Source: an uncultured virus (IMG/VR IMGVR_UViG_3300038321_000417) (Duplodnaviria; Heunggongvirae; Uroviricota; Caudoviricetes). Taken from it: a stretch of 64,000 nucleotides of DNA. The notes beneath the pieces are model-generated. The model did not search any database. It saw only the letters and a list, made by a program, of their open reading frames with translations, and was not told the origin of the DNA. The stretch lies in IMG/VR virus record IMGVR_UViG_3300038321_000417; one strand, 5' to 3'. Position numbers and translations under genes: made by a program. Each line of letters starts with the position of its first letter. Position 1 is the first letter of the stretch. Shown in pieces: positions 1 through 64,000 of the stretch.

Positions 1-362
1 TCGTCAGCTATCTCATTGTATACCTCTAAACAGCTGCTTATAAAGGCTTCAACAGGGGTCATCCCCTCGCTCTCTCCCCCTATTAATTGCCTGTAATCTT
101 CCATATTTATTAACTTTGATTCCTCAAACTTACCTTTGTTACGCTCCAAAGTGGAAAGTAACGAATCTTCTGAAATAACATAAATCTCTTTCCGTGCATT
201 TATTAATGAATAAAAAACTGAGTACTCGTTTTTAAATATGTTTTCTCTTACCTTTGTCTTTAGATAATTGTGACATAACTTTATGTTCTCTAGTAGTTGC
301 TTATCGTCTACCGAAATTTCTCTGTAAATTAACCCCCCAAAAATAGTCTTGTCAAACTCCAC
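1..362 (-). CDS. Hypothetical protein, 5' part (runs off window edge)
   Basis: Read manually: GTG at 362-360 after AGGTGGG, open frame (MEFDKTIFGGLIYREISVDDKQLLENIKLCHNYL...) to position 1; absent from ORF track because no stop in window. Confidence 0.7.
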   Translation of the reverse strand, partial: MEFDKTIFGGLIYREISVDDKQLLENIKLCHNYLKTKVRENIFKNEYSVFYSLINARKEIYVISEDSLLSTLERNKGKFEESKLINMEDYRQLIGGESEGMTPVEAFISSCLEVYNEIAD

Positions 363-391
363 CTAGCCCACCTGTCTTTCCCCTTGTCCTA

Positions 392-586
392 CTAACTCTT
401 AGTATAGAATACTGTCCAATCTGAGTAAGCAATTATCCTCAAGATGTTTCTTGCTTCAATCAGTGTTAGATTGTTAATAAACTCACCAATCTCAGGCATA
501 TTTCCAGATTCAACTTTCTTTATTAAAGTGTCTAATTTGACCCTTACTGCTGTAATTTCGTCATGTACTTCCTCACCACTTCCCAT
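392..586 (-). CDS. Small hypothetical protein
   Basis: 64-aa ORF, AAAGGG RBS-like sequence upstream, co-oriented. Confidence 0.6.
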   Translation of the reverse strand: MGSGEEVHDEITAVRVKLDTLIKKVESGNMPEIGEFINNLTLIEARNILRIIAYSDWTVFYTKS

Positions 587-648
587 TTTTTATACCCTTT
601 TCTTTAAGGATTAAGAGAGCCTTATCTTTTGTGTTGTGACCTTTTATC

Positions 649-900
649 TTATGCTGTAACTTTACTGTTAGTCTGATGTGCAAGTATGTTTTTTATCCTG
701 TCATACCAAGAAATTAATCTCGGTTCTGCCTCTACTTTTGTTCTTATACCGCAAACATCACACTTAAAATGCAAGTATTTACTGCCTTGTACTGTCTCTA
801 CTTCCATGTAATCGACACCATTTAATTGATGCCCACAAAGACAGCGAAACGGTATCTTTTGTATAGGTATTTCAGTCTTTCTCATAATAGTTGCGTTCAC
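649..900 (-). CDS. Small Zn-ribbon protein
   Basis: CLCG...CDVCG cysteine pairs. Confidence 0.6.
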   Translation of the reverse strand: MNATIMRKTEIPIQKIPFRCLCGHQLNGVDYMEVETVQGSKYLHFKCDVCGIRTKVEAEPRLISWYDRIKNILAHQTNSKVTA

Positions 901-972
901 TTATACCACCGTCTTTCGTCTCTTTGTATTTCTGTTTACTCTCATAAGTATCTTACTCTCTTATTTATGTTT

Positions 973-1224
973 CTATTTCCAGACAAAGCCCTTTTTCCTA
1001 CAATATGCTCTGTCAACAACAGACGTATTAACCGCTTCTACAGATATATCTTGTCTTCCAAGCTTTAAGTTTAACTTATGCGCAGCTCTATTTGCTGCTT
1101 CTAAGTCTTTAAAACAAATTGCGGTAGATAGCCCAACACTATCTAAGTCGGAAAAGTATGCGAATTTATCGCATATGCCTAAAAATACCCCTCTGCTTTT
1201 ATTAACGACTATGTAATTACTCAT
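973..1224 (-). CDS. Small hypothetical protein
   Basis: 83-aa ORF with GAGGT RBS. Confidence 0.6.
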   Translation of the reverse strand: MSNYIVVNKSRGVFLGICDKFAYFSDLDSVGLSTAICFKDLEAANRAAHKLNLKLGRQDISVEAVNTSVVDRAYCRKKGFVWK

Positions 1225-1331
1225 TTAATTGTACCTCTCACATGTCTACTGATCTTTGTTTAATTCTAATACTATCGTTTGTATACTCCCACACAAAAGT
1301 ATCTTTCTTCATTGTGAAAGTACTTGTAGAC

Positions 1332-1374
1332 AAAAAAGTGAATAGGAATCCATATAGAATCCCTATTCACTTTT
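1332..1374 (-). terminator. Rho-independent terminator after topoisomerase A subunit
   Basis: AAAAGTGAATAGG...CCTATTCACTTTT inverted repeat with A/T tails just after the stop. Confidence 0.8.
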
Positions 1375-1379
1375 AAACC

Positions 1380-3503
1380 TTATACCAACGCTAATGCCAC
1401 ATTAGTTGCCTCTCCTGACTTATAGTTTACAACACCAGTTAATTCCACAAGCTGCATATCTCTAATGTTGTCGATTTTTCCAGCAAATACAACAGTTTTA
1501 GCTGTCTTTGACTTGCGCAGTATATCTGTGAATTTAACCGTCGCCTGTTTTCCAAGTAATGATGTAACTTTTACATACACATTATCGCTGTCTGAATCTG
1601 CAAACTCTATTGAACCAATATAATTCCCATCTGCAAATCCTTTTTGTATGTACTTCTGCTTACGCTTATCAGTAGCAAACTCATTACTTGAAACAATGCA
1701 AACCCTGCCGTCATCATCACAAAACACATATGTTCTGTCCGGTTTCCATAACTTAATATCAATTATTTCAGCATCCTCTATCCCAAAATCCGATAGAATG
1801 AATACCCCTGTTTTCTTACCTGTAGTATACTCTATATTTTCCAAGTATACCTTATAAATTTCACCAGTTGAGGCGAACAACACTATAACATCATTTGCCT
1901 TGCAGTTTACGTTGTATACACAGTTAGACGGCATTTTTGCGTTCATACTATTCTTGTATATAAACAAATCTTCCGTGATGCCAATTTGAACATTTGACCT
2001 GTCAACTGGTTTTTCATAAATAACTGTAACAGGTGTCAAATCTTCGGGATACTCGTCATATATAACTGACTTTTGTCGATAGCCTTTTTTCTCAAACTTA
2101 ACCTGTAGCCCCGATAATTCATCAACAATGAAAGGTACTGGATCAAGTACAATTTCCTCAGCACGTTGAAGCTCTTTTGTTAGGTTTACTAACTGCTCTT
2201 TTTTCTGTTCGAGCGAAAACTTCCTTATGTCTTTTATTTTTAAGTCCAATAAGAATTCAAATATCTGCTGATTGAACGGTGTAACCCTTGCTTTTAAGTA
2301 GTTGTAAAGCACAATATCGTTGTCCTCATTCTTAACAAGTTTAACCCATTCATCAATATCAACTTTTGCCATAAAACTCATATATGCTTGTAAAAACATC
2401 AGCTTACTTTCCAAACCATCAACAAGTAACTTAAAGTGTTTACTTACAACTGCCTTACGCCATTTACACCACTCTATAAGTAAGTGTCTTACACCTATTT
2501 GTTTTAGGGAATTCCCGTCTATTACATTAATGTTTACCGGGTAATTCTTCTGTAAGTCTGATTTATTCAATATGTAATTAACTACAGCATCAGGTTCTCC
2601 GTTGAGTTTTATAACAAGTTTGAAACCTTTAATGCCTGATTCATCTTTAGCTTCAATAAACCGTGTTCTAAAATAATTGTCCCGTTTCGCCAACTTATAA
2701 AGCCCATCAATAACATTTTCAATTATAACTCCATAAGGTAACTCAGTAACAACCATTTCAAAATATCTACCTTTTTGTTCGATCGAATATGTAGCATATA
2801 GCGGAATTGATCCTTTACCTCTTGTCCATATTTCTTTCATGCTCTCCCATAGTGCTACAATACTCCCGCCAGTCGGAAAGTCAGGTCTCAAATCCATGTA
2901 ATTAAATTCTTTTCCTTGTATAACCGCCTTTGTAGCCTCAATTAAGTCAATCACATTAAAGGATGGAATTGATGTTGCAAACCCTACCGCAATACCCTCT
3001 GTGGGATTTGCTAAAACCGCAGGAAAATTGACAGGTAACGCCTTTGGTTCTGTGTTTTTGTTATCGTACGATGGTAACATTTCAACTGAGTCTAAAAATT
3101 CAAAATATTCCTTTGCGTATTCCTCTAGCATAGCTTCTGTATACCGAGGTGCTGCACTCGCAAAATTAGATGTTACTGAACCAAAGTTTCCTTTTCCATA
3201 AATCAATGGAAAGTTCCATGCACCATATTTGTCTGTCATTCTAGTCATAGTCTCATATATAGCCATGTCACCGTGAGGATGCAACTTCATAACTTCACCA
3301 ACAACGTTGGCACTTTTTGTCTTGTTATTGAACAACTTCTGCTTGTACATTGTATACAGAATTCTTCTCTGGGAGGGTTTTAGCCCATCCTGTAAGTCCG
3401 GTATAGCCCTGTCCAACAAGACCTTTACCGCATAAGGCATGTAATTGCCATAAATAACATCCCTTATATCTGTGTCTACAACTGTCTGTTTTGCTAAACT
3501 CAT
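1380..3503 (-). CDS. Type IIA topoisomerase subunit A (GyrA/ParC-like)
   Basis: RAIPDLQDGLKPSQRRIL, VVGEVMKLHPHGD and AAPRYTE (catalytic Tyr); ATG at 3503 with GGTGGGTG RBS; no canonical GyrA-box seen. Confidence 0.95.
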   Translation of the reverse strand: MSLAKQTVVDTDIRDVIYGNYMPYAVKVLLDRAIPDLQDGLKPSQRRILYTMYKQKLFNNKTKSANVVGEVMKLHPHGDMAIYETMTRMTDKYGAWNFPLIYGKGNFGSVTSNFASAAPRYTEAMLEEYAKEYFEFLDSVEMLPSYDNKNTEPKALPVNFPAVLANPTEGIAVGFATSIPSFNVIDLIEATKAVIQGKEFNYMDLRPDFPTGGSIVALWESMKEIWTRGKGSIPLYATYSIEQKGRYFEMVVTELPYGVIIENVIDGLYKLAKRDNYFRTRFIEAKDESGIKGFKLVIKLNGEPDAVVNYILNKSDLQKNYPVNINVIDGNSLKQIGVRHLLIEWCKWRKAVVSKHFKLLVDGLESKLMFLQAYMSFMAKVDIDEWVKLVKNEDNDIVLYNYLKARVTPFNQQIFEFLLDLKIKDIRKFSLEQKKEQLVNLTKELQRAEEIVLDPVPFIVDELSGLQVKFEKKGYRQKSVIYDEYPEDLTPVTVIYEKPVDRSNVQIGITEDLFIYKNSMNAKMPSNCVYNVNCKANDVIVLFASTGEIYKVYLENIEYTTGKKTGVFILSDFGIEDAEIIDIKLWKPDRTYVFCDDDGRVCIVSSNEFATDKRKQKYIQKGFADGNYIGSIEFADSDSDNVYVKVTSLLGKQATVKFTDILRKSKTAKTVVFAGKIDNIRDMQLVELTGVVNYKSGEATNVALALV

Positions 3504-3731
3504 TACTTCACCCACCTTAAATAAAACTTAATTATACCTTTATAATTAAAGTATCAATTAATTATCATGTTTAACCTTTAATATCCTTTACCTTAAAAAA
3601 CAAATTCTCACAATAAAAACTAGTAATCACTCTTTAATCTTGTAACAATAAGTTTCGTCACCTCAACACTTTCTGGAAATCCTTATATGTTAATTTAGAT
3701 AAAATAAAAGGAAATTTTCCTAACTGTTAAG

Positions 3732-5678
3732 TTAGGAAAATACCTCTGCCAAATTCATGTTTTTCATATAATCTACTATTAATGTTTTTCTTTCCTCTAA
3801 ATTGTCACCAAGTAAAGCATCAAATACCCAAGCTGTCATTTCCTCATACCGATCTTCGTCATACTCTACCCTTACAAGTCTTCTTGTATCTGGACACATT
3901 GTAGTCTGCCACATCATGTCTGGATTATTTTCACCAAGACCTTTAGACCTATTCACAGTATGCCGTACCTCTTTTTCATTTAAACTCTCTACAATGCTGT
4001 CCTTTTCTTCATTTGAATATGCAAACAAAGATTCCTTACTTGTTTCAATTTCAAATAAAGGTGATTCAGCAATGTAAACTCTACCTTGCCTTAATAATGT
4101 AGGATATAGTCTGTAGAAAAACGCCAAGATTAATGTCCTAATCTGGAAACCATCCTCGTCAGCGTCTGTACATATAACAAACTTTTCCCACTCCCGTATG
4201 TCACCAAATGATACCCTGCCTACTCCCCTTAATTCCACGTTCTCATTGATAATTTTTATTAAACGCAAGATTATGTCGTTTGAAAGTATTTGTGTAACAT
4301 CCGACTTCAAACAGTTCTTAATTTTACCTCTTACGGAAGTGATTGCTTGAAACTCACTGTCTCTTGCTTGTCTACAAGAACCCATAGCAGAATCTCCCTC
4401 AACTATGTAAAGCTCTCTATTATAATCACTTCTGCAATCAACAAACTTGTCAATAGGAGAATTATCAAATTCCTCAATTTTTTCCTGTGCCTTTTTAATT
4501 TGCTTTTTCAATTTTGCAGCTGTCTCTTGCGCTTTTTCATGTACGTCAATTACTTTTTTAAAGTAGTCTCGAATTTCTTTATTCTTTTGAAATATCTTAC
4601 CAATCTCAACACTAAGCACTTCTGTGAGAACCGTTTCTAGCCCTTTGTTTAAAACTGTTCTTTTTGCCTGTCCGTCATAGGATGTTGAAGTTGAGCGAGT
4701 GAATATAAATGCACTTAGATTACCCTCTAAATTGTAGATGTCTCTAAGATACAATCCTTTGTCCAGTGATTCGCTTAAACCTCTACCTACCCCTTGAAAT
4801 AAAGACTTTGAATGTATTCCCCCACGACTTCCTTTGTCAACTTCAACCATGTTGTGGAAGAACCTAACTTCACCACCATTTTGAACAAACGCAAAAGCTA
4901 TTTTATACTCGTACCTGTAAGCATCACTACCATCTCTTTTATCGGATGTTGTTCCGCTACCCTCTGTGAACAAGTAGTCTGAAATTACTTTTTCTTTGGT
5001 CTTGTCCTTTAACACTTCTTTGTAATCTTTTGAACCTATTACTTCGGTTTCACCTGTAACTTCATCTTTAAAGTTAAAAGTGACCCCCGATGCTAGTGCC
5101 ATCCCCTGTATTGTAGGTATAAACCAATTATCATCTATTTCTATTTCGTCGAAAACTTCTAAATCAGGTAGCCAACGTATCCTTGTGCCTGTTTCGGATG
5201 GATTATCTGAATTAGTTGTGCTAAGTTCTGTAACTGGATCGCCTTTTTTAAAACTTATCTTATATGTCTTTCCCCCACGTTTAGATTCTACTTCCATGTA
5301 TGTAGACGCAAACTGTACAACCGTAAGTCCTACTCCGTTTAACCCTACTGACATGTCATATTCTGTACCACTATACTTACCGCCTGCAAATAATTGTGTG
5401 AATATCAATTCCCAATTATATTTGCCCTCTTTTTCATTGTAATCCATTGGTACGCCTCTACCCCTGTCTATTACCTCTAATGAGTGATCTGCATACCTTG
5501 TTATGTCGATTACTTTACCAAAACCCATAGACGCTTCATCTAATGAGTTACCGACAACCTCAACTACAGTGTGTTTAACAGCATTAAGATCATGTGATTG
5601 CAACCATATGTCTGGCTTTAATCGTACCTTTTCTTTTTCCGACAATGACCGTATATTAGTCTCCGATAAATTACTCAA
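3732..5678 (-). CDS. Type IIA topoisomerase subunit B (GyrB/ParE-like)
   Basis: GHKL motifs EVVGNSLDE, DRGRG, GGKY, GLNGVG; TOPRIM VEGDSAMG and CTDADEDG; RSKGLGE. Confidence 0.95.
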   Translation of the reverse strand: MSNLSETNIRSLSEKEKVRLKPDIWLQSHDLNAVKHTVVEVVGNSLDEASMGFGKVIDITRYADHSLEVIDRGRGVPMDYNEKEGKYNWELIFTQLFAGGKYSGTEYDMSVGLNGVGLTVVQFASTYMEVESKRGGKTYKISFKKGDPVTELSTTNSDNPSETGTRIRWLPDLEVFDEIEIDDNWFIPTIQGMALASGVTFNFKDEVTGETEVIGSKDYKEVLKDKTKEKVISDYLFTEGSGTTSDKRDGSDAYRYEYKIAFAFVQNGGEVRFFHNMVEVDKGSRGGIHSKSLFQGVGRGLSESLDKGLYLRDIYNLEGNLSAFIFTRSTSTSYDGQAKRTVLNKGLETVLTEVLSVEIGKIFQKNKEIRDYFKKVIDVHEKAQETAAKLKKQIKKAQEKIEEFDNSPIDKFVDCRSDYNRELYIVEGDSAMGSCRQARDSEFQAITSVRGKIKNCLKSDVTQILSNDIILRLIKIINENVELRGVGRVSFGDIREWEKFVICTDADEDGFQIRTLILAFFYRLYPTLLRQGRVYIAESPLFEIETSKESLFAYSNEEKDSIVESLNEKEVRHTVNRSKGLGENNPDMMWQTTMCPDTRRLVRVEYDEDRYEEMTAWVFDALLGDNLEERKTLIVDYMKNMNLAEVFS

Positions 5679-6544: not shown

Positions 6545-7393
6545 TTATTCAGCACTAACTTTAATGTCTATGTTGAATTTACCGTCAATCATATCTAGCA
6601 CCGCAAGTACATACTCCAAGCACGAATCTTTATCGGAAGAAGTTATGTTGAATGAAACATTATCAAACTGACTAATTTTAGGTTTTCCAGTCGTACTATT
6701 TACTGGCGTAGCTCTTTTTTCCTCAATAGGCGTAATAGAGGCTGTATCTTTTTTAATGAAAGCTTCTTTTTGAGGTAAAACTTCTTTTTTAATGTCGGTT
6801 TTCCCCGCCGATCTAAGTCCCTTAAATGCTCCATACTCCGCTAACTTCGTTTGAACATCCTCGTTTTCAATGTCAATGTTCGCTCTCTTCGCCCACGATA
6901 CAATAGTGTTTGGCTGATACATGTATATAAGTCCTCTTTCTGTTTTACGCCTTGCCAAGGAAAGTAAATCAACTATCTGTTGCTTTTTTACTCCCCAGTG
7001 AGCCGCATAGAGATTTATATTTTGCCGTATCTCTTGATTGTAAATAAACTTAATTGTAGCAACTGGCAGGAAACGAAGTTCATTCCAATTTAAGAGATTT
7101 AAAACTTCCTTAATTTTTATCCCTCTGTCTGTTAAATGGGGTTTAAGTTTATACAATACTAACCCCAATTCCTCTGCTTGTAAATATTCTTTCATGTTAT
7201 ACACCTCAACTTTACTTGGTTTAGTATATTCTCTGAGTGCCTTACCGCTTAAATAACTAGACGGCGTTTTAAGGGTGTGTATATACCTATTAGTGCGCAT
7301 ACCCCTTACACCGCTTGCTGTCCTTTTCTTTTCCCTAACTTCCTGCTCAAATAATTTCCGTACAGTCAACTTTTCACCACCCCTTTTTAACAT
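6545..7393 (-). CDS. Hypothetical protein with basic N-terminus
   Basis: 282-aa ORF; N-terminal EKKRTASG...LKTPSSYLS resembles Firmicutes phage/prophage proteins (recollection only). Confidence 0.65.
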   Translation of the reverse strand: MLKRGGEKLTVRKLFEQEVREKKRTASGVRGMRTNRYIHTLKTPSSYLSGKALREYTKPSKVEVYNMKEYLQAEELGLVLYKLKPHLTDRGIKIKEVLNLLNWNELRFLPVATIKFIYNQEIRQNINLYAAHWGVKKQQIVDLLSLARRKTERGLIYMYQPNTIVSWAKRANIDIENEDVQTKLAEYGAFKGLRSAGKTDIKKEVLPQKEAFIKKDTASITPIEEKRATPVNSTTGKPKISQFDNVSFNITSSDKDSCLEYVLAVLDMIDGKFNIDIKVSAE

Positions 7394-9006: not shown

Positions 9007-9654
9007 CTACTTATCTGTTTTCTTTTTAGGCTGATGCATTCTCCAACTTGTACTTCTCTTTTTTAAATCACGTCTCTGAATGTCAAATATGTAGCTTAAA
9101 AGTTTTTCCTGTTTCTTAAATTCAATAGCTATAAACCTCACACCAAATTCCTTTTTCCTCTTTGAAAGTTCAATCTTACGTACTACAATACCCTCATACT
9201 GTATGTCAATGTTATTTTCTAAATGTATATTCCCTTTTAACTTATCTCCTACCTCAAACTGCCTGTCCGTATGAAAACAAAATCCGCCACCGCTTATATC
9301 TGATGTTTTAAAATAATCCTTATCCGTGTCACTATTTTCAATATCGAATAGTATAGCCTCTTTTACCCTGTAAAACCCCCGTCTTTCCGCTTTCTGAGGT
9401 TTATCAGTGCATATTGCCTGTACGATTTTAATGTTATTTTCCTCATAGATAGATTTTACCTTTACCCTTTGTTCGTATAAACTTTTGTTCTCCATATACA
9501 ATAATAGGATTTCTTCCGATTGTTGTAGCTCGATTAATACCCCTTTCTCTGTCGGCATGTAAAAGTGGACACAGTCGCCGATTCTGTTAGTGACAACACT
9601 CTTACACTCATTGGTAAACGTTTTAACATCCACATTCTGTCCTACCTTTAACAT
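9007..9654 (-). CDS. PilZ-domain protein (YcgR/flagellar-brake-like)
   Basis: ERRGFYRV (RxxxR) and DISGGG (DxSxGG) c-di-GMP motifs, GVRF, IFDIQRRDLKK tail; ATG 9654 with GGAGAGG RBS. Confidence 0.9.
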   Translation of the reverse strand: MLKVGQNVDVKTFTNECKSVVTNRIGDCVHFYMPTEKGVLIELQQSEEILLLYMENKSLYEQRVKVKSIYEENNIKIVQAICTDKPQKAERRGFYRVKEAILFDIENSDTDKDYFKTSDISGGGFCFHTDRQFEVGDKLKGNIHLENNIDIQYEGIVVRKIELSKRKKEFGVRFIAIEFKKQEKLLSYIFDIQRRDLKKRSTSWRMHQPKKKTDK

Positions 9655-9788
9655 TGTCAGCATTCCTCTCCAAATAATAAATTTATTTCCCAAACTTTAC
9701 TTCTTTACTCTCTATGTCCTATAAAAACAATACGTAAGGAAATAATACTATCAATCCTTCGATTTTTTATTGCAATGTTAATGTATAC

Positions 9789-11507: not shown

Positions 11508-11622
11508 ATTCAAGTACATCAAAAATAAACTGAATATTATACTTAAATAAAACTTCCTCGTCAAACACTTCTAAAACACAGATTGTTAAAGTCTTCTTAA
11601 TTTTCATAGTTATATCATCTCC

Positions 11623-12663: not shown

Positions 12664-12683
12664 CCCTTTCTAAAAACACACAT

Positions 12684-13788: not shown

Positions 13789-14132
13789 AGCCCCTACCCC
13801 CTTTTTTAACGATACTGATACACTTCCTATTAACTTATTGTCTTTAATTAAAAAAGCGACTTAACAGTCGCTATAGCTTAAAAACTCCCAACTCAATTTT
13901 AAGTTTCAAATCAAATTTAATAGTAAGTTATTACATACACACATGTTTTCACAATTCTAATATACAATTCAAAATATCCTCGACATGTTGCCTCGTCTTA
14001 CACTTATAAATTTTTCAGTAGCAGTGTATATCATTTCAACTGTTCTACCTATGCAACCTAACAGGAATATTCAAGACATATAAGCTGTCACCCTCACTAC
14101 TCACATGTGTGTACGTCCGTTAAAAGAATTTT

Positions 14133-51497: not shown

Positions 51498-51531
51498 AAA
51501 TCACTCCTAACTCTAAATTTTCCATTAGTAA

Positions 51532-53079
51532 CTATTCTACTATTAAGGGTATTTTGTTAGCCTCACAATAAGTCACATATGCAAAAACTCCCGCTGACGA
51601 AAATTCAATCTTTAAGTCCTCATTGATAAACTTATGCCAATTCTCCCTTTTTGCTTCAAATGTGTCTCCTGTAATACCTAATAATGTCATGTGATTGCCT
51701 AATCGTATCTCGTATGATTCTAAGAATTCAAACTTAAACCCTAAACTTTCCTCAAACCATAACTTTTTACGTGTCATGTCCCAATCTTCATTGTACATTT
51801 CTACAAGTTCACCGATAAGCATTGAGCCACTTTCTACACCACTATTGTGTGAACCTATATCTTTGTTTACTTCTTGATACGCTACAGGGTTATATTCTCC
51901 TGCATTAAAGTTTAAACCAGACGTGTCTTTCTGTCTTTTATATACAGGTAATCTCTGTGACGGTCTGTATGCTCTTGCAAGTGTAGCTATTGCTTCTGCT
52001 CTTGTAAGCTGTTTGTTCCAACCAGATGATCCGTCAGGCATACCACACATGATACCCTGATAATTTAACCCATTAACTACCCTAATTGTCTGCTCTGTAA
52101 GTGGTTCTGTACCTGCTACTACCCTTTGGAATGGGGGATAGTAATAAGGTAAGGATACCCCAAATTCCTGTATAAGTCTTCCTACTTCAGGAGAATCCCA
52201 TTGACACTCACTTGACGGTTTAAATGTTGATGGTGTATCGTTAAAGTATTTAACTTTTGCCATCATGTTTCCTATCTCTGGTGTTATTTCTTTAACCACT
52301 GCTTTAGCCACCAAACTCGCTATTTCCCCTCTGTAACAAGGTTGTTCCATATCTTCTATTGAGTATGTTCCGAATGGAATACCATCTACTGTGTACGCAT
52401 AGGAAAACCACCACCTATTTTGCATACCTTTAAACCTGTCATTGCACCTAAACTTATCATAATCAGGTCTTTTTGACATAAAGTATTCCACTTCATCTGC
52501 CGTCATTCCCCGAATCCCTTGCAATCTCCCAATCATAGCCCAAAACTCTGCCCTTGTAACTATGTTAGTTCCTGCAAATACTAAACCCTCTGAACCCATT
52601 CCGTTTATGATACCCTTTGATGTCATTAATGCTAAATCTTTTATATACCATTCTGTCCCTGTTATGTCTGAAAACCTATAAGGCATTAGCTCAACTATCT
52701 TTGCAATTTCCTCGTCAGTATAAAGTTCGGCTTTCTTAGTCCTGTCAATTCCCATAGCCTCTACTTTTGCATAAAACTGCTCTTGTGTCAATCTTTCTTC
52801 TTCATGTATTGTATTCTCATATGCAGGTGTATTAGTTGCCATTAAGATGTGTAACTCTTTTTCTGGTTCTAAGTTAATCACAAACACATCCGGTGTCTTA
52901 TTGATTACTTTGTTTACGTACGCAACAATAGAAGTCTTTTCTCTGCCAAACCTGTCAAAATAACTGTCCCCGTCTCTTAGACTGTTAAGCGTAAAACCCG
53001 GTAATGAGTTCGCCAATATCATTACCGCCACAATCCCACCGTTTATTACTTTCGTACATATATTACCTTTAAATGCCAT
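51532..53079 (-). CDS. S-layer homology (SLH) domain protein
   Basis: FSDITGTEWY...KGIING...VTRAEF and GIMCGMPDG...LTRAEAIATL; ATG 53079 with GGGAGG. Confidence 0.85.
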   Translation of the reverse strand: MAFKGNICTKVINGGIVAVMILANSLPGFTLNSLRDGDSYFDRFGREKTSIVAYVNKVINKTPDVFVINLEPEKELHILMATNTPAYENTIHEEERLTQEQFYAKVEAMGIDRTKKAELYTDEEIAKIVELMPYRFSDITGTEWYIKDLALMTSKGIINGMGSEGLVFAGTNIVTRAEFWAMIGRLQGIRGMTADEVEYFMSKRPDYDKFRCNDRFKGMQNRWWFSYAYTVDGIPFGTYSIEDMEQPCYRGEIASLVAKAVVKEITPEIGNMMAKVKYFNDTPSTFKPSSECQWDSPEVGRLIQEFGVSLPYYYPPFQRVVAGTEPLTEQTIRVVNGLNYQGIMCGMPDGSSGWNKQLTRAEAIATLARAYRPSQRLPVYKRQKDTSGLNFNAGEYNPVAYQEVNKDIGSHNSGVESGSMLIGELVEMYNEDWDMTRKKLWFEESLGFKFEFLESYEIRLGNHMTLLGITGDTFEAKRENWHKFINEDLKIEFSSAGVFAYVTYCEANKIPLIVE

Positions 53080-53153
53080 GTTGAAAACCTCCCGATTCTT
53101 CAATATACCCTTTATAAGATTATGTACCTAAATTTTAAGTAAACGGTGAAATA

Positions 53154-56442: not shown

Positions 56443-57369
56443 TTAGTCTGATACCCCCTTGCCTGAGGTTAGTTCGTTATACATAGCCACATTCATTGCC
56501 TTTATCAAGAATTTTACAAACGAAGTGATGTCGCCATATCTATTGTTAGCCATTGCAAAACACTTATGATATTCTGGAACATCTGAATTAATGCCTTTAC
56601 TTATACTTAGCCCCTCAAACTTATTAAGTCCGCTTTTAATAAGATAGTACCTGTGTAAAAGTCTTGCTATTCTCCCGTTTCCATCCCAAAAAGGGCTTAT
56701 GTATAATGCTAAATAATGAAGTAGGCATCCTCTTATAACTATTGTTTCAATATCGTTTACTTTAATGTTAAATAGCCCTATGTATTCTTTCATTACTTCA
56801 TCAATCTTACTTGCTTTGACCCTGTTATAACTTTCTTTATCCTGTGAATTTTTTAATGCTGAATCATTTGTCCGGTATTCTCCACAATAATCTAAATGCT
56901 CTTTATCAGTCAAGCACCTAGTTAATTCTTTTGCAATAAGCGATAAGTCGTACTTCGATAACTTCCACAAATTTTTGGTTGTATTCAATATTCTATATAC
57001 GTTAAACACCATTAACTCGGATTCATTATTAAATACAATTGTGTCTTGCTTTATCTTTTCTAACATTCTATTATAAGTGATGACTGCATAGTCTATTTGT
57101 GCTGAACAAACTGCTTCTGTTAATGTATACTTGACGCCACTTCTTTTGTCTTCTACCTCTTTGTATAGCTTTTTAAATAACTGTAAATCCCACTTCAAAG
57201 CTTTTTCATATATCCAGAATGTTTTATTCAATGTCCAAAAATAATATTTTAAAGATTCTTTTTTTCTCAATGATATGTATTCTTTTAATTCATCAGGTTT
57301 TAATTTTATATTTAACGTCTGATAGTCTGGATATTTATCACTCTTTATATATTTTTTAGTATCTATCAA
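56443..57369 (-). CDS. Fic-domain protein with His-to-Ser in catalytic motif
   Basis: GEYRTND, ISPFWDGNGRIARL; start uncertain. Confidence 0.85.
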   Translation of the reverse strand: MIDTKKYIKSDKYPDYQTLNIKLKPDELKEYISLRKKESLKYYFWTLNKTFWIYEKALKWDLQLFKKLYKEVEDKRSGVKYTLTEAVCSAQIDYAVITYNRMLEKIKQDTIVFNNESELMVFNVYRILNTTKNLWKLSKYDLSLIAKELTRCLTDKEHLDYCGEYRTNDSALKNSQDKESYNRVKASKIDEVMKEYIGLFNIKVNDIETIVIRGCLLHYLALYISPFWDGNGRIARLLHRYYLIKSGLNKFEGLSISKGINSDVPEYHKCFAMANNRYGDITSFVKFLIKAMNVAMYNELTSGKGVSD

Positions 57370-57504: not shown

Positions 57505-57690
57505 GAATTATACCCCTCTCTTCTCACCGTTAACATAAAGTTATAAAAAATTATATAAAATATATAAAAATCTATAAAATTATTGCTTCCTTTTTCAGCG
57601 TGTCCGATTTTGTGACCAAGTCACTACTTTCGTTTGTTTAACACTCCAAAGGCTTAAATTCCCTGTAACGGACAGGTACATAAATAAATT
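57505..57690 (-). ncRNA. Putative TnpB omegaRNA (right-end scaffold plus flanking guide)
   Basis: GTACCTGTCCGTTACAGGGAATTTAAGCCTTTGGAGTGT...GGACACGCTGAAAAAGGAA with nested stems between tnpB stop and right end; boundaries approximate. Confidence 0.6.
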
Positions 57691-57703
57691 GCCTTTATGA
57701 TGG

Positions 57704-58841
57704 CTAACTTATTTTATACTTAGCAAGATTTAATGAAGCATTAAAGTCTCTATCAATCTTTAATCCACAGCTATCACAAACATAAACTCTTTCAGATAAA
57801 CTTAAATTTATTTTCTTGTTCCCACAACAACTACATAGTTTAGATGAAGGATACCACCTGTCGGCTTTAATAAATTCCACTCCGTAAAACTTACACTTGT
57901 ATTCAAGGTAAGTGACAAACTTGTTTAAGCCCTGTTTAGCTATTTTTTCAGACAAGTGCTTATTCTTCATCATGCCTCGTATATTTAAGTCTTCTACCAC
58001 TACACGATACGGTTTGGTTTTTACTATATCGTATGTAGCTTGGTGTATATGTGTGTTTCTTATGTTTTTAAGCTTTCTATGTAGTAGTTTTATTTGTTTT
58101 TCAAGCTTTATAATGTTTTTAGATTTATCCCATTTGCAATCGCCCCCCTTTATTCTTGTTTTGTTCATGTTTCCTACTTACTTGCCTTTGTAGATGTTTT
58201 AATCTTTTTTCTAATGTCTTTACTCTGGGTGAATTGTTTATGTTTTTAACCTCTACCCCATCACTTCTCACAGCTAACTTTTTTATGCCCAAATCTACCC
58301 CTACTGTCGCACCCCCTAAATTAGGTTTATGTTCCTCAACCTCAAAAGAGTAGCTTAGATACCAGTACTTCCCGTCAAAACTTACTCTTGGGTTATTGGC
58401 TGGAAATACTATGTTATTAGGTCTGATTCTTACAAACTCTTTTATCCCTGTTAGTTTTATGTGTTCGCTGTCTACCTGACGAAAGTTATCAGTCCTCTGG
58501 TAAAAAGACTCTGTACACTTACCTTTTTTCTTAAACTTAGGAAAACCTATGTTCCCACGTTTAAAAAAGTTTTTATACGCAGTATCTAAGTCCTTTATTG
58601 CCTGTTTTGTGACAGCTTCAGGAACATCCAATAACCAAGCATACCGTTCAGTCTCGTATTTAAGACTTTTAACAAAGTCAATTAAATTTTGAGTAGTTAA
58701 ACTCTCGTTATATTCCCTGTAATACTCAATTTTTAATCCTAACGCATAATTGTATACGAATCTTGCTGCTCCTGCAAATTGTTTAAACTTTGTCTCTTGA
58801 TCAGGTGTAGGAAATAGTCTTATTTTTTCAGATACCATCAT
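57704..58841 (-). pseudogene. tnpB: TnpB RNA-guided nuclease, frameshifted at G6 tract
   Basis: GVDLG, VVEDL, SSKLCSCCG...CDSCG, DRDFNASLN; removing one G at 58143-58148 joins the two ORFs. Confidence 0.9.
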
Positions 58842-59455
58842 AACTCCCCAACTCCCTCAGATAACGCTTTTATTATCTCTCTTGTTTTTCTTACTCTTTT
58901 CCCTTGTAGCCTACAACTAAATACAGTTATTATTTGTATTAAATCTTCAACTAACTCCTGCTGTTCAGTCTTTTCTGTATTGTCTATTATTTCTATTTCT
59001 GTCCCGAACTTAGCACAAATAAATTCAATAATTTCAAAACCAAACCTCAATAATCTATCCTTGTATAGTATTACAACCTTATCCACTTCACCCGAAGTTA
59101 TACTATCAAGGAGTTTTTTGAACCCTGGCTTAGTATAGTTTATACCAGAACCTATGTCTGTTATCAAACTAAATTGATACCCCTTTGCTAACATATATGT
59201 TTTAACATTTTCTATTTGCCGTTCCAAGTCATCCTTTTGTTTGTGAGAAGAAACCCTACAGTACCCTATGATTACTCTCGGTACTTTAAAAACAGGCTCA
59301 TTCAGATACTTCCTTAACTGACTGTCTGAATAATACCTTGTCCCACCGTCTGTCACTTTAGCCGGTTTTAATTTTCCACTAGAGTCCCAGTTTCTTAATG
59401 TTTGTACTGAAACCCCTATTTTTTTAGCAAACTTGCCAATACTATATAATTCCAC
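58838..59455 (-). CDS. tnpA: IS607 TnpA serine recombinase
   Basis: MerR-type HTH (SIGKFAKKIGVSVQTLRNWD), GYCRVSSHKQKDDLERQ, DRLLRFG. Confidence 0.95.
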   Translation of the reverse strand: MELYSIGKFAKKIGVSVQTLRNWDSSGKLKPAKVTDGGTRYYSDSQLRKYLNEPVFKVPRVIIGYCRVSSHKQKDDLERQIENVKTYMLAKGYQFSLITDIGSGINYTKPGFKKLLDSITSGEVDKVVILYKDRLLRFGFEIIEFICAKFGTEIEIIDNTEKTEQQELVEDLIQIITVFSCRLQGKRVRKTREIIKALSEGVGEL

Positions 59456-59867: not shown

Positions 59868-60689
59868 TTAATCAATGCATGTCTGCTCCATTTTAGCTAT
59901 TCTTGCTTGCGTAAATTCATCTTTACTTAATTTGTAACGTTTTAAAACGCCCGGAGCTGTTAATGGATTACGTATGTAGGTATCCGAATAGCTTAATAAG
60001 AAAGTCAATGAATGTGGTCTATCGTAAACAGAATACTCTTTACACTGTATGAATATAAACTCTGAATTCTCGTTCAATATTTCTTCCGATAGTAATAAAC
60101 TAGCACAATTGTCTCTGTATTTACCTAAAACCTCACATATAGTCGATTCCATGTTTTCGTACGAATCATCATACCTAAAATACCCCTGGAATCTGCATAT
60201 AAAAGGTCTTATGTCATAGATAGAACATTGACCAACTTCATTTAAAAACAAACAAGGGCTGTCTTCATGGGTTGTTTTGCACTTACCTGTAGCTTTGAGA
60301 TAGCGGTTAAACACGTCAATGCCGCCCTCTTCCATGTTTTCTTCGTACTCCGCCGTCTCTTTATTGTGTTCTCTGAATTTTTCCCACTTTACTTTTGCTT
60401 TACTTGTCAACTCTTGCCATTTATTTAGCCCGTAACGTTTTGTGTATTCATAAGCAATATAGTCAAACTCGGTACTCGATATTGCAAAATAATGATTACA
60501 ACAAGTGTTACAGGATTCCCTACACAAGTTGCACTTACCGTTTGCTTTTCCCTCTAAGATGATAGCGTCCAGCTTTTTATAATAGTTAATTAAACCCGCT
60601 ATTAAACTGTCTGGATTTATGTCGGGATGGCACCTCTTATATTTCTTTCCAGAACCACAAAAACAAAGATCGTTCCTGCCTAATGTCAT
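59868..60689 (-). CDS. SEC-C motif + YkgJ-type CxxCxxCC cysteine-cluster protein
   Basis: GRNDLCFCGSGKKYKRCH; CRESCNTCC; CLFL...CSIYDIRPFICR. Confidence 0.9.
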   Translation of the reverse strand: MTLGRNDLCFCGSGKKYKRCHPDINPDSLIAGLINYYKKLDAIILEGKANGKCNLCRESCNTCCNHYFAISSTEFDYIAYEYTKRYGLNKWQELTSKAKVKWEKFREHNKETAEYEENMEEGGIDVFNRYLKATGKCKTTHEDSPCLFLNEVGQCSIYDIRPFICRFQGYFRYDDSYENMESTICEVLGKYRDNCASLLLSEEILNENSEFIFIQCKEYSVYDRPHSLTFLLSYSDTYIRNPLTAPGVLKRYKLSKDEFTQARIAKMEQTCID

Positions 60690-62218: not shown

Positions 62219-62614
62219 TTACACTCTGTCTAATGTGTTCGCTGTTGTAAATATATTTCTCATTCTAAACTCAAATGGAGATTCAGCTAGTAATACTAGT
62301 CTTAACTCATTTTGAGCGTCTAACGCAAAATAAGGATATGTTAAGAAATATTTCTCTTTAAATACCCACTCAGGTATCCCCACTTCATAGTCAGAACATA
62401 TTTTTTGTACTGCTCCGGATATAAAAGCGTAATCTCTTTCCGCTATGTTTTCAAATTGTTCCGGCTCTTCTCTAACCAGTTCAAATCTCTCTTTTGTTGT
62501 TCTGCTCTCAGAATAGAAATGATCTAAAAAGTCCCCAAAGTATATCCACATATTTACTTTAGGGTTAGTATTTTTTGCTGTAAGTTCAATTACTTCCTTT
62601 ATTGTGTACCGCAT
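62219..62614 (-). CDS. Hypothetical protein, putative partner of a nucleotidyltransferase-type TA module
   Basis: FGDFLDHFY...EEP...IPEWV...ESPFEFRMRNIF pattern. Confidence 0.6.
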   Translation of the reverse strand: MRYTIKEVIELTAKNTNPKVNMWIYFGDFLDHFYSESRTTKERFELVREEPEQFENIAERDYAFISGAVQKICSDYEVGIPEWVFKEKYFLTYPYFALDAQNELRLVLLAESPFEFRMRNIFTTANTLDRV

Positions 62615-62615
62615 T

Positions 62616-62732
62616 TCATTCTCCCAGTAACTCCATTAACATGTAAAATGTCTTAGGTAAAATTCTGTTCCTAGCCAATACAACAAATGTTCTTGCAACT
62701 CTTAGGTTAGTAAGCGTGTCATAATCTTTCAT
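62616..62732 (-). pseudogene. 38-aa ORF, possible deletion remnant
   Basis: Read manually: MKDYDTLTNLRVARTFVVLARNRILPKTFYMLMELLGE; ATGA-coupled upstream, abuts the 62219 gene. Confidence 0.4.
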
Positions 62733-62944
62733 TCAATCCACTCCCTTTTTCTTTCTGCGTCACGCACAGTATTGTAGAGTAAAATCGACCTTACCATTAC
62801 AACTACTGTAACTAACAGTATCACAGATAAGAATACACTCCGTACCGTTACGGTATTTAAAAGCGTAATTATTCCTATGAATATTGCTAAATACCTACAA
62901 AGTAATGCTTTTTCAATTACGGTCTTATTTTTCATCATATTCAC
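62729..62944 (-). CDS. Small two-TM protein
   Basis: Two hydrophobic helices; GAGGCGG RBS. Confidence 0.65.
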   Translation of the reverse strand: MNMMKNKTVIEKALLCRYLAIFIGIITLLNTVTVRSVFLSVILLVTVVVMVRSILLYNTVRDAERKREWIE

Positions 62945-62996
62945 CGCCTCAATGTCTTCATTTTATTTTTTCCCTCTCTAAGTGACATGTAGGGTA

Positions 62997-63206
62997 TTAT
63001 TTCTCCCTGTGTTTTATATGCCAAATTAAGTTCAACACAAGCATACATACTAAGGTTAGAGTGTACGCAATAATCTCATAGTCAACACTTCTTATCAATG
63101 CTACTACTAATAAAGTAAGCACTAAAAATGATACCCTGTCTAACCCCTTGATATAATTCAACTTTATTTTTTTCGTGTAGTATAACTCTTTAAGCTTTTG
63201 CTTCAC
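62997..63206 (-). CDS. Small two-TM protein
   Basis: Two helices with YEIIAY loop. Confidence 0.65.
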   Translation of the reverse strand: MKQKLKELYYTKKIKLNYIKGLDRVSFLVLTLLVVALIRSVDYEIIAYTLTLVCMLVLNLIWHIKHREK

Positions 63207-63403
63207 TCCGCATCAACCTTTTCCCCAATTTTCTTTTTCTGTTCTTTACAGTACAATAAGTCCATTACAATTACCGCCAATAAACATATGCTGTACGCTA
63301 ATATTTCATAAAATGAACCGTTTAGCACCCCTATAGCTATTCTTGTGGCAATGAAAAAGTAAATTAAGCCAATCCAATAACCAAATCCTAATTTTTTCTT
63401 CAT
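63203..63403 (-). CDS. Small two-TM protein
   Basis: Two helices with YEILAY loop; AAGGGG RBS. Confidence 0.65.
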   Translation of the reverse strand: MKKKLGFGYWIGLIYFFIATRIAIGVLNGSFYEILAYSICLLAVIVMDLLYCKEQKKKIGEKVDAE

Positions 63404-63518
63404 TTAAAATATCCCCTTTTTCAATTTATACATCTATACTCAACCTGCGGCTAACAAGTTAGCAAGCAATACCGCCACTAACTAAAAAAGCCCCATAATA
63501 CTATATGTGGCGTAATAC

Positions 63519-63935
63519 TTAAATTAGTTCGCCTGTGATTTCTTTTCTATATACAACTTTCTGTCCCACATCCCCCTTAGTTACGTATAGTCGTATATTA
63601 TTTAGATTGTTCGACTTTAACTTGTTTACATAATCAGTATAAAGCATAACCCTAGGAACACACATTAAGTCTATAACAATTTTAACACCATTAAGTTTTG
63701 TTACGCACACCGTGTGATAGTAATATTTTTCAGATACAGCCACAGGTAAGTTAAAAGTAGCTATGTTTCCGACTAGTGTCTTTGCAAAAAACGTCACTAA
63801 ATACCCCCTACTTATTGTCCTCACTACACGTTCAGCCATTTCAGAACAGTCTTCATTTGGATGCATAATGTTCATACCCTGTACTTTTTTAATAACACTT
63901 AAATATTTATCATTTACACTTTCTTTTCTTTTCAT
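63519..63935 (-). CDS. Hypothetical protein
   Basis: 138-aa ORF, followed by hairpin at ~63484-63512. Confidence 0.65.
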   Translation of the reverse strand: MKRKESVNDKYLSVIKKVQGMNIMHPNEDCSEMAERVVRTISRGYLVTFFAKTLVGNIATFNLPVAVSEKYYYHTVCVTKLNGVKIVIDLMCVPRVMLYTDYVNKLKSNNLNNIRLYVTKGDVGQKVVYRKEITGELI

Positions 63936-64000
63936 TTTTGATCACTTAGGTTAAACCATATAGAAACGGTCTTACATCAATATACTTTGAAGCGTCATCT

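Follow-up and report, generated by a model that had tools for sequence, protein, structure and literature searches.

IMG/VR record IMGVR_UViG_3300038321_000417, filed as an uncultured virus of the Caudoviricetes, was analysed here as a stretch of 64,000 nucleotides (the window). We propose that the window makes up about 41% of a plasmid of about 155 kb that is related to the conjugative plasmid pXO16 of Bacillus thuringiensis, the remaining 91 kb or so lying outside it. The window has a G+C (GC) content of about 34% (32-37% across bins), and its GC skew is negative in all 16 bins of 4 kb (-0.12 to -0.30). The raw list of open reading frames (ORFs) holds 65 entries of at least 100 amino acids (aa), 49 on the minus and 16 on the plus strand. 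Once a non-overlapping set had been chosen greedily, which gave a coding fraction of 0.87-0.92, 48 of 49 ORFs of at least 100 aa and 61 of 65 of at least 50 aa were on the minus strand, in line with the uniform strand bias described in an earlier note on this DNA. All features for which window coordinates are given below lie on the minus strand.

Pfam, NCBIfam and PHROGs scans covered 50 window ORFs, and 62 window proteins were used for the comparison with pXO16. The ORFs are mostly hypothetical, as noted before, with 28 of the 50 lacking a Pfam family at E<=0.001. Pfam, Rfam and tRNA scans of the 64 kb detected no tRNA genes (0) and no rRNA, ribosomal-protein or metabolic genes; Rfam gave a single match at gathering score, a RAGATH-18 RNA next to an insertion sequence. 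The genes dnaA, dnaN, recF, recR and ybaB, whose absence had been pointed out earlier, were also not found in the window by the Pfam and NCBIfam scans. The earlier note had named rRNA or ribosomal operons on the contig, together with gyrase and dnaX genes that are the sole copies, as the finding that would speak against an extrachromosomal element; as far as the window reaches, no such operons are present. A megablast search of positions 1-25000 against phages and plasmids returned no match, and a scan of IMG/VR with the DnaX-like protein alone gave no pattern match.

The window holds a backbone of genes in one orientation, in the order DnaX-like protein, small membrane protein, HU-like protein, YdjM-family hydrolase, protein with five transmembrane segments, giant polytopic protein, wall hydrolase, protein with two transmembrane segments, VirB4-fold ATPase, FtsK-type ATPase, SNF2 helicase and type IIA topoisomerase subunits B and A. 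Within it, at about 16.4-38.3 kb, lies a type IV secretion (conjugation) module that had been overlooked in the earlier note, and it is because of this module that we assign the element to a conjugative pXO16 type. Three references are used throughout: pBTHD789-1 (NC_018516.1, 349.6 kb) from B. thuringiensis sv. israelensis, which is equated with pXO16 in the relevant part of PMC6199540; the 215.7-kb plasmid NZ_CP076292.1 from the finished genome of Bacillus velezensis US1; and G003, an IMG/VR record of 179,785 bp with 35.7% GC and a 55-bp terminal overlap (closed assembly).

At the centre of the module are two secretion ATPases. The first is a VirB4-like protein of 680 aa (20975-23017) with a Walker A motif at residue 284, which was recognised by profile and by fold. 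A word-indexed search of 5.8 billion proteins yielded only 16 related clusters, and a family profile built from 15 of these had VirB4 of Thermoanaerobacter (4ag5) as its best match in the PDB (E 0.0022). The AlphaFold model has a mean predicted local distance difference test score (pLDDT) of 68.6, with values above 80 over most of residues 280-630. When this model was compared with the PDB using Foldseek, the ten best rows were all VirB4 or TrwK structures (4ag5_A, E 9.8e-12, TM score 0.72 on the target), and at the level of the predicted structure this confirms the VirB4 fold. None of the Tcp or other type IV secretion system (T4SS) families reached its cut-off, the best being NF045975 VirB4_plasma with 22 bits against a cut-off of 590 (NCBIfam). 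The second ATPase, directly downstream, is an FtsK/SpoIIIE-type coupling or translocase protein of 706 aa with two N-terminal transmembrane segments (18839-20959; Pfam FtsK_SpoIIIE 3.1e-11), which is 33% identical to the FtsK/SpoIIIE protein of pXO16. It is followed by a region with a 239-aa protein and a 557-aa putative lipoprotein, whose leader ends in Cys (16445-18828; homologues in 18 of 54 related loci), and by a 530-aa SNF2-family helicase (14851-16443; Pfam Helicase_C and SNF2-rel_dom). The latter, a gene that had been identified before, is 32.6% identical to a 'DEAD/DEAH box helicase' of pXO16.

Upstream of the VirB4-like gene, the immediate neighbour is a 438-aa protein (23018-24334) without family match and with homologues in 13 of 87 loci. 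Next comes a 737-aa protein (24359-26572) with a C-terminal ParA/MinD-type ATPase domain (Pfam AAA_31 1.6e-4, below the cut-off); its nearest ESM Atlas clusters carry AAA_31/CbiA, and the B. velezensis plasmid encodes an 'AAA family ATPase' at a similar place in its locus. A 328-aa protein with two N-terminal transmembrane segments (26517-27503) has homologues in pXO16 (5.3e-18) and G003. Its model has a pLDDT of 64.9 and gave no Foldseek match in the PDB at E<=0.001, while VIA-align reached a best Z of 7.8 that covers a helical hairpin only. Rows suggesting a relationship to the N-terminal part of TrwK/VirB4 (E 0.04-0.2) were too weak and were not used. Two small proteins of 147 and 136 aa with hydrophobic N-terminal leaders, one of which is followed by Cys (27507-28357), have no homologue in related loci. 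They are preceded by a 639-aa membrane-anchored cell-wall hydrolase (28359-30278) with a C-terminal VanY/M15 domain (Pfam 1.7e-8, residues 515-634), for which tblastn, phmmer and the comparison of 54 loci detected no homologue in pXO16 or related loci. The same slot holds a CHAP-domain protein in G003, and C40 and glucosaminidase genes in the B. velezensis plasmid.

The largest gene of the module encodes a polytopic membrane protein of 1472 aa (30293-34711) with seven hydrophobic segments, namely an N-terminal signal or transmembrane segment and six further transmembrane segments. Residues 537-1396 align with a 1834-aa protein of pXO16 at 24.8% identity (E 1.5e-59), and we consider the protein a candidate channel component that would be VirB6-like by role. 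It is preceded by a 685-aa membrane protein with three transmembrane segments (34717-36774) that has no Pfam, NCBIfam or PHROG match, and by a 277-aa protein with five predicted transmembrane segments (36847-37680), which was detected by tblastn in pXO16 at 225.7 kb and in G003 (phmmer 1e-13 and 5.4e-10). A YdjM-family membrane-bound metal-dependent hydrolase of 206 aa follows upstream (37700-38320; Pfam YdjM 9.6e-13); YdjM hydrolases also occur in the equal slot of the locus in pXO16 (L003:4000-4707), the B. velezensis plasmid (L118:2617-3495) and G003 (74722-75432). Neither the Pfam and NCBIfam scans nor a rescan of 22 ORFs at E<=1 detected a relaxase family among the window proteins. A 139-aa lipoprotein was considered as TrsH/TraH-like (24.8 bits against a cut-off of 150) and as a 'T4 neck protein' (Pfam E 4e-4, below the cut-off), and both matches were too weak to use. 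Taken as a whole, the block at 16.4-38.3 kb is conjugation equipment.

Three further backbone genes lie upstream of the module. The HU-like DNA-binding protein of 100 aa (38342-38644; Pfam Bac_DNA_binding, 25.7 bits with a cut-off of 22.4), which the earlier note had listed, and a 238-aa membrane protein with three predicted transmembrane segments (38955-39671) have positional homologues in pXO16 (7e-6 for the HU-like protein; 8.4e-5, h254, for the membrane protein) and G003 (7.5e-7 and 4.9e-7). These were found with phmmer in a search limited to the tip region of pXO16 and to 60-105 kb of G003. The third gene encodes a DnaX-like clamp-loader ATPase of 439 aa (39739-41058; Pfam DNA_pol3_delta2 4.9e-27) of the short, gamma-like form with a Walker A motif at residue 63. 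The presence of a dnaX gene, as stated earlier, is supported by TIGR02397 dnaX_nterm with 208.9 bits. This score lies below the cut-off of 250 and the 439 aa are not of tau length, so the protein falls short of a tau/gamma orthologue. It is 32.7% identical to an 'AAA family ATPase' of pXO16 and 32% identical to its counterpart in G003, and its gene is the first of the block that is colinear with pXO16.

At the other end of the backbone, a type IIA topoisomerase is encoded by a subunit B-like gene (648 aa, 3732-5678; four Pfam domains) and a subunit A-like gene (711 aa, 1380-3515; Pfam DNA_topoisoIV 4.8e-98). The earlier note had described a divergent pair; the pair is present, but the two genes are co-oriented and divergent in sequence only. 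Subunit B scored 360.5 bits against the gyrB cut-off of 882.4 and 306.4 against the parE_Gpos cut-off of 899.95, and subunit A 310.4 against 877 for gyrA and 232.5 against 813.25 for parC_Gpos. Because their scores lie far below the NCBIfam equivalog cut-offs, the topoisomerase and DnaX-like proteins are, judged by sequence, not housekeeping orthologues. Subunit B is 30% identical to a 'toprim domain-containing protein' of pXO16 in colinear position, and subunit A is 27% identical to a pXO16 protein annotated as 'DNA gyrase subunit A'. The PHROG families 543, 551 and 28877 match with 397-455 bits for subunit B and 370 bits for subunit A. Subunit A contains AAPRYTE at residue 121, which we take to be the catalytic-tyrosine motif of type IIA enzymes. 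The C-terminal beta-pinwheel repeats of GyrA and the GyrA box are required for supercoiling. The GyrA-box pattern has no match in subunit A, and DNA_gyraseA_C has none in its last 256 aa at E<=1. Since subunit A lacks a GyrA box and recognisable C-terminal repeats, the plasmid enzyme is most likely a relaxing and decatenating topoisomerase rather than a negatively supercoiling gyrase.

Relatives of subunit B fall into one cluster at 99% identity on seven contigs, three clusters at 64-65%, two at 44-45%, and 'toprim domain-containing' proteins of Clostridia at up to 43%. The best matches in the phage database, including Bacillus and Geobacillus phages, are 38-40% identical. In a tree of 21 sequences, for which all rows were kept, with pXO16 and G003 marked as long branches, the window clade and a Clostridia group containing Bacillus phage PK-3 are sisters (support 99/96). 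The window clade is separate from Listeria GyrB and has a branch length of 1.06 changes per column. The position of the gene pair is kept across the family. Because the tree separates the window clade from pXO16 and G003, the pair may have been replaced from a host or phage source rather than inherited, or may have diverged very fast.

The relationship to pXO16 became apparent from tblastn searches against 72,556 plasmids. The VirB4-like protein matched 22 records, 21 of them from Bacillus, and the ten best matches were B. thuringiensis plasmids of about 350 kb (31.7% identity over 94% of the query, E 6e-88). The same ten plasmids gave the best matches to the DnaX-like protein (32.7% over 87% of the query), about 19 kb from their VirB4-like gene and in the order seen in the window. 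When the 62 window proteins were compared with the complete pXO16 sequence by tblastn, 11 matched, and ten of these are strictly colinear over 44 kb in the same orientation: DnaX-like (229.8 kb), YdjM (226.4 kb), the five-segment protein (225.7 kb), the giant polytopic protein (221.6 kb), the two-segment protein (214.5 kb), VirB4-like (210.7 kb), FtsK-type (205.2 kb), SNF2 (202.4 kb), topoisomerase subunit B (188.0 kb) and subunit A (185.5 kb). With the two positional homologues added by phmmer, the 238-aa membrane protein and the HU-like protein, 12 genes are colinear, and the annotated gene order of pXO16 agrees with the window block. In pXO16 the topoisomerase pair is followed downstream by genes for a DnaB-like helicase, a CHC2 primase and an NAD ligase; a DNA polymerase gene comes later, and the ParM/StbA gene lies elsewhere, at 312.8 kb. 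Of the pXO16 ORFs of at least 100 aa, 342 of 347 are on one strand, and the GC skew of the plasmid has one sign in 34 of 34 bins.

According to the sections of PMC9673590 that deal with its transfer, pXO16 is conjugative, and a 25-kb tip locus of 16 coding sequences, with two ATPases and a wall hydrolase, is reported to be necessary for conjugation, the relaxase and the origin of transfer (oriT) being described there as unidentified. The same 2022 review, as far as these sections go, calls the system 'rather unique', reports only pXO16 copies among 1,168 plasmids, and gives a natural distribution apparently limited to serovar israelensis. Among the elements compared here, conjugative transfer is known for pXO16 only.

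The backbone is not confined to pXO16 and the window. The VirB4-like profile had 431, 286 and 151 matching clusters (50% identity) among 1.84 billion proteins at E<=1e-3, 1e-10 and 1e-30, respectively. It also gave 139 confirmed relatives in metagenome contigs, including contigs of 410, 388 and 360 kb, of which 80 were kept, as well as eight relatives in IMG/VR. In 185,579 species genomes (one genome per species) only two relatives were detected, both on short contigs of metagenome-assembled genomes (MAGs), one from Oscillospiraceae and one from Clostridia. Neighbours were counted in 54 related loci of at least 20 kb, excluding loci nearly identical to the window. On the same strand as the VirB4-like gene, the FtsK-type ATPase was present in 53 of 54 loci (median offset +3.2 kb, downstream), the giant polytopic protein in 49 (median offset -7.3 kb, upstream), the SNF2 helicase in 48 (median offset +7.2 kb) and the family of the 328-aa two-segment protein in 32. 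The 55 tabulated loci have GC contents between 29 and 46.5%, and in every one of them the coding strand is rich in G. The B. velezensis plasmid carries the backbone in the same order.

G003 is a complete relative. Eleven window proteins match it in backbone order, except for a weak out-of-order match of w34717 (E 1.7e-5); 198 of its 201 ORFs, and 162 of 162 of at least 100 aa (greedy choice), are on one strand, and the sign of its GC skew is the same in 17 of 17 bins. It encodes a replication set of a family-A polymerase with proofreading domain, DnaB-like helicase, primase parts, NAD ligase, RNase H and 5'-3' exonuclease, together with UvrD, RecJ-like, SbcD-like, ParM-like, ParB-like and ArdC-like anti-restriction proteins; its surface genes are LPXTG adhesins of the antigen I/II type. 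By analogy, this gene set probably shows what lies beyond the window, namely helicase, primase, ligase, polymerase, an HD-domain protein and ParM- and ParB-like proteins. The HD-domain protein is kept in pXO16 (74750-75697), the B. velezensis plasmid (L118:32523-33410) and G003 (130588-131565), and no homologue was found within the window.

Near-identical copies give an indication of the form of the replicon. The element recurs in three metagenome contigs, with a nucleotide identity of 98.2-98.8%. Two of these measure 156,231 and 155,736 bp; moreover, the exact transposase TnpA of the window occurs on a contig of 155,359 bp, and a topoisomerase subunit B of 99% identity on a contig of 157,424 bp. 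When the contigs L012 and L013 were mapped to the window, base 1 fell at about 51653 in one and at about 2238, inside the topoisomerase A gene, in the other, and the window runs uninterrupted through both start points. As four assemblies of nearly equal size (155.4-157.4 kb) are cut at different places, we infer a circle of about 155 kb. The IMG/VR relatives G003 and G004 have direct terminal repeats. Among the relatives, two further sets of contigs of nearly equal size were noticed, one of 126-132 kb (L064, L066-L069, L071, L084, L093) and one of 185-191 kb (L024, L052, L065, L073, L074, L076). In both, the marker gene stands at scattered positions and in both orientations, and they look like recurrent circular elements across many samples, some with human-gut titles.

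Considering all of this, we judge it likely that the window represents some 41% of a self-transmissible circular plasmid of about 155 kb that belongs to the pXO16 family and whose host is probably an anaerobic, Clostridia-like member of the Bacillota. The earlier suggestion of a megaplasmid is borne out by the colinearity with pXO16 and the circular 179.8-kb relative, and by near-identical contigs of 155.4-157.4 kb with varied breaks. Several points weigh against our proposal. The identity to pXO16 is low (25-33%, tblastn), and only 12 of 62 window proteins have a colinear pXO16 counterpart (ten by tblastn, two by phmmer), with one tblastn match elsewhere. The topoisomerase subunit B clade of the window is separate from pXO16 and G003, whose own placement is uncertain owing to their long branches. 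Circularity is deduced from assembly sizes and break points, not from reads across a junction, and only 64 of about 155 kb were read, so that the replicase, the partition genes and any phage or integration genes of the element would lie in the remainder. Eight relatives are filed in IMG/VR, where the end classes shown for seven of them are 'provirus' in three, 'direct terminal repeats' in two and 'linear' in two, and one G003 protein comes close to the Pfam Phage_lysozyme2 cut-off (28.1 against 28.2 bits). Finally, a search with the TnpA of the insertion sequence did not lead to a host, the near-identical copies all being on contigs of no named taxon.

The 'provirus' label of three of the seven relatives could also be taken to mean that the element is an integrative conjugative element (ICE) or other chromosomal island instead of a free replicon, and FtsK-type coupling proteins and VirB4 ATPases are also known from ICEs of Bacillota. 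We consider this improbable. For a piece of chromosome, the four assemblies of 155.4-157.4 kb with different breaks, one of them inside a single-copy gene, would require coincident stops at about 156 kb. In addition, complete relatives are self-closing (55-bp overlap in G003, direct terminal repeats in G003 and G004), and pXO16 and its B. velezensis relative are circular plasmids in finished genomes. The sole recombinase in the window is the serine transposase of an IS607-type insertion sequence, and genes for helicase, primase, polymerase, ligase and partition proteins belong to the family's own repertoire.

Slightly less probable still is a jumbo phage or phage-plasmid whose structural genes lie outside the window, the second option of the earlier note. 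The filing of eight relatives in IMG/VR is in its favour, as are the one-strand layout, the large size, the phage-like replication genes (in relatives also a family-A polymerase) and the fact that 91 kb of the element lie outside the window. PHROG families give good scores for the topoisomerase subunits and the DnaX-like protein, and subunit B is 38-40% identical to phage proteins, with phage PK-3 in its sister group. All coding sequences of pXO16 itself share one orientation, a layout that, in the part of PMC6199540 concerned with it, 'suggested a phage-like nature'. No plaques were obtained from pXO16, however, and it transfers by conjugation (PMC9673590 and PMC6199540, in the parts devoted to these questions), and its annotation tables contain no capsid, terminase, portal or tail product names. 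The window holds no head, packaging, connector, tail or lysis family beyond domain cross-hits, in agreement with the absence of capsid and tail genes reported before; the PHROG matches in structural categories are limited to the VanY domain hitting a tape-measure family and the AAA domain of the DnaX-like protein hitting a small-terminase family. In G003, none of 171 ORFs of at least 90 aa (0/171) matches a head, connector, tail or lysis PHROG, whereas 35 have a match at E<=1e-6. TerL_ATPase (PF03354), the sole terminase family tried, was found in none of five relatives (0/5), three of which are rated at least 90% complete. The phage-plasmid alternative is consequently unsupported by the window, by G003 and by the five relatives. 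VirB4, the FtsK-type coupling ATPase and the wall hydrolase together constitute conjugation equipment, and G003, judged by its genes, is not a virus but a plasmid whose replication set is phage-like. The viral filing itself also has a precedent: according to the 2026 preprint PMC12934698, geNomad and VirSorter2 consistently call conjugative megaplasmids of gut Bacillota viral, and misclassing of this kind is routine.

Clostridia chromosomes, too, can show strong gene-strand bias and GC skew, yet an ordinary chromosomal region with housekeeping gyrase and dnaX is highly improbable, given topoisomerase and DnaX-like proteins far below the equivalog cut-offs, a subunit B apart from GyrB in the tree, 64 kb without tRNA, rRNA, ribosomal or metabolic genes, 28 of 50 scanned ORFs without Pfam family, and a species-genome scan in which only two of 231 pattern-matching stretches, both on short MAG contigs, held a VirB4-like relative.

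With regard to the host of the proposed plasmid, the Clostridia-like bacterium suggested earlier is plausible, as two MAG relatives come from Oscillospiraceae and Clostridia and topoisomerase subunit B groups with Clostridia. The PilZ gene (9007-9693) and the SLH gene (51532-53103) that had been cited as pointers to a flagellated, S-layer-bearing host are both present (Pfam) and say little in this respect, since pXO16 has an SLH-domain gene of its own. For the same reason, the SLH protein is more likely to be surface or mating equipment of the plasmid. An attempt to deduce the host from the IS607 TnpA failed, the matches in Romboutsia, Clostridiisalibacter and Enterococcus being only 67-70% identical. 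Window sequence was listed in 13 rows of sequencing runs from six studies, with at least half of the sampled words in only four runs, all of one fermentation-metagenome study, and one of these four may be the source; no RNA runs with the sequence were listed. The rows with a small share (soil, sludge, landfill and other fermentation runs) have no bearing on habitat. On the basis of record titles and the runs of this one study, the habitat of the probably anaerobic, Clostridia-like host is taken to be a fermenter community.

Apart from the backbone, the window carries a surface module (47121-53103) of a 1458-aa secreted protein and the 523-aa SLH-domain protein, both with signal-like N-termini (SLH Pfam 8.4e-9). 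The 1458-aa protein has no family match in Pfam, including a rescan at E<=1, and no usable match in the ESM Atlas. The module may act as an adhesin. A second group of surface genes forms a BspA-type leucine-rich-repeat (LRR) cassette (11571-13943) with two Pfam LRR_5 proteins at 11623-12663 and 12684-13607. The contigs L012 and L013 (98.5% identity) lack the interval 11571-13943 and carry about 200-300 bp instead, and from this sequence comparison the interval is a strain-variable surface-protein cassette.

An insertion sequence of the IS607 type (57587-59455) consists of TnpA (58838-59455; transpos_IS607, 226 bits) and a TnpB that is split into two overlapping ORFs (58125-58841 and 57704-58168), both of which match guided_TnpB (NCBIfam). 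The RAGATH-18 RNA (RF03064, 70.4 bits) lies at 57587-57652, just 3' of TnpB, and TnpA copies at 99-100% identity occur on other contigs of 2-95 kb. Close to the insertion sequence are a Fic-domain protein (56443-57369; Pfam 9e-9), for which pXO16 also has a counterpart gene, and a 273-aa protein that combines a SEC-C motif at its N-terminus with a CxxCxxCC metal-binding domain (59868-60689; Pfam). The DnaC-like gene mentioned earlier could not be recovered: no DnaC/IstB-type match was found in Pfam, NCBIfam or PHROGs across the 50 ORFs, nor in a rescan at E<=1 of 22 ORFs (19 without family and three with weak or no useful hits). Besides the DnaX-like gene, Walker A motifs occur only in the two secretion ATPases and in a 282-aa orphan without family (6545-7393; residue 192), and the orphan may be the gene that had been meant.

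All activities named in the following are predicted from sequence, as are the direction of replication and the extrachromosomal state and host of the element. The FtsK-type ATPase would act as coupling protein and the VirB4-like ATPase would energise a secretion channel of Gram-positive type, built of the giant polytopic protein and small membrane proteins, while the VanY-domain enzyme would open the peptidoglycan. Mating partners may be held together by the SLH-anchored protein, the 1458-aa protein encoded beside it and the strain-variable LRR proteins; such a contact role would be akin to that of the aggregation proteins of pXO16 and to the one reported for S-layer proteins in its transfer (PMC9673590). 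Replication would make use of plasmid-encoded parts, that is, the clamp loader in the window and the DnaB-like helicase, primase, family-A polymerase and NAD ligase that lie downstream in relatives. As the sign of the GC skew is constant round the complete relatives and all genes are co-oriented, replication is probably one-directional and would run co-directionally with all transcription; transcription or coding bias alone could also yield a GC skew of one sign. Such a one-way layout would be expected to generate positive supercoils ahead of forks and polymerases as well as large catenated circles, which would provide a rationale for a plasmid-borne type IIA enzyme that relaxes the supercoils and decatenates the daughter circles.

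It may be speculated, by analogy, that the HD-domain protein or the always-adjacent SNF2 helicase is a candidate for DNA processing or for the relaxase. The HD-domain protein comes into question because a MOBH-like HD relaxase is proposed for the 'Hodor' megaplasmids in the part of PMC12934698 describing them. In a wider sense, the relatives could represent a large family of pXO16-type giant conjugative plasmids, with sizes of about 126 to more than 400 kb and a GC content of 29-46%, among the anaerobic Bacillota that live in guts, fermenters and digesters. This family would combine a phage-like, probably unidirectional replisome, a type IIA topoisomerase of its own and secretion without canonical relaxase, with the HD-domain protein or SNF2 helicase possibly processing the DNA, and it would have been missed by cell-centred surveys because its members are left out of genome bins, and by plasmid surveys because they are filed as viruses. 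We regard this joint reading as evenly poised between right and wrong.

The finding places a pXO16-type backbone in a distant, probably clostridial host and gives a supposed singleton many relatives. Neither a published link of pXO16 to relatives outside the B. cereus group nor a publication on pXO16-like elements in metagenomes was found in the open-access literature, which leaves subscription journals uncovered. The breadth of the family makes the unidentified relaxase and oriT of pXO16 approachable by comparison, starting from the genes kept beside the two ATPases, i.e. those of the giant polytopic protein, the two-segment protein, YdjM and SNF2, and from the HD-domain protein in full-length members. 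It also points to very large mobile plasmids of gut and fermenter Clostridia to which standard pipelines give a phage label. The family hence matters more than the single copy, and a one-way genome is opened to comparative and experimental work.

Compared with phage and plasmid type IIA topoisomerases, the window enzyme has the same domain layout but lacks recognisable C-terminal repeats in subunit A, and its clade sits on a long branch. Its subunit B is 38-39% identical to proteins of the Ruminococcus albus megaplasmid pRUMAL01, Vescimonas and Monoglobus, which form the sister group in the tree. On pRUMAL01 (420 kb), the subunit B gene (18750-21959) directly follows a replication initiation gene, and the subunit A gene (34046-36235) is found 12 kb from it, behind IS66 and TnpB insertions. 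With the Tcp system of pCW3 from Clostridium perfringens and other Gram-positive T4SS, the window shares an FtsK-type coupling ATPase, a VirB4-type ATPase, a polytopic protein and a peptidoglycan hydrolase; in contrast to these, its proteins stay below all such family cut-offs, and no relaxase was found in the scans.

Hodors, as described in the preprint PMC12934698, are conjugative megaplasmids of human-gut Bacillota of 211-389 kb and 44.6-47.1% GC with Rep_3 and several sortases. They are alike in kind, being very large conjugative Bacillota plasmids with VirB4, a coupling protein and a hard-to-recognise VirB6, with giant surface proteins and no common relaxase, and they too were overlooked and taken for phages by virus callers (PMC12934698). 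The window, with about 34% GC and an element of about 155 kb, lies outside the size and GC ranges given there. Neither Rep_3 nor a sortase was found in the 50 ORFs of the window, which covers about 41% of the element, or in five relatives (0/5 each). Assignment of the element to the Hodors was rejected on account of size, GC content and the lack of sortases in the window and the five relatives, the comparison being with the defining families of the Hodors; pXO16 is mentioned zero times in that preprint.

Closest to the window are the elements that share its backbone, with differences in detail. The VirB4-like protein is 33% identical to that of G003 and 26.5% identical to that of the B. velezensis plasmid. 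The hydrolases differ from member to member, with VanY in the window, C40 and glucosaminidase in the B. velezensis plasmid and CHAP in G003, and the LPXTG adhesins of G003 contrast with the SLH protein of the window. Relative to pXO16, the window element is less than half as large (about 155 against 350 kb), its proteins are 25-33% identical (tblastn), and 50 of 62 have no detectable counterpart in the colinear block. The wall hydrolase of the window has a VanY domain, and the one of the pXO16 locus is called TipB. The surface module consists of SLH and LRR proteins in the window, whereas pXO16 has isopeptide/VaFE surface proteins and a sortase. The subunit B sequences of the topoisomerases belong to different clades, and the host is probably an anaerobe in one case and Bacillus in the other. 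A canonical relaxase was neither found in the window scans nor identified in pXO16 according to the relevant section of PMC9673590. Both elements have a single gene orientation and a GC skew of one sign, and pXO16, like the window, carries its own SLH-domain gene and Fic gene.

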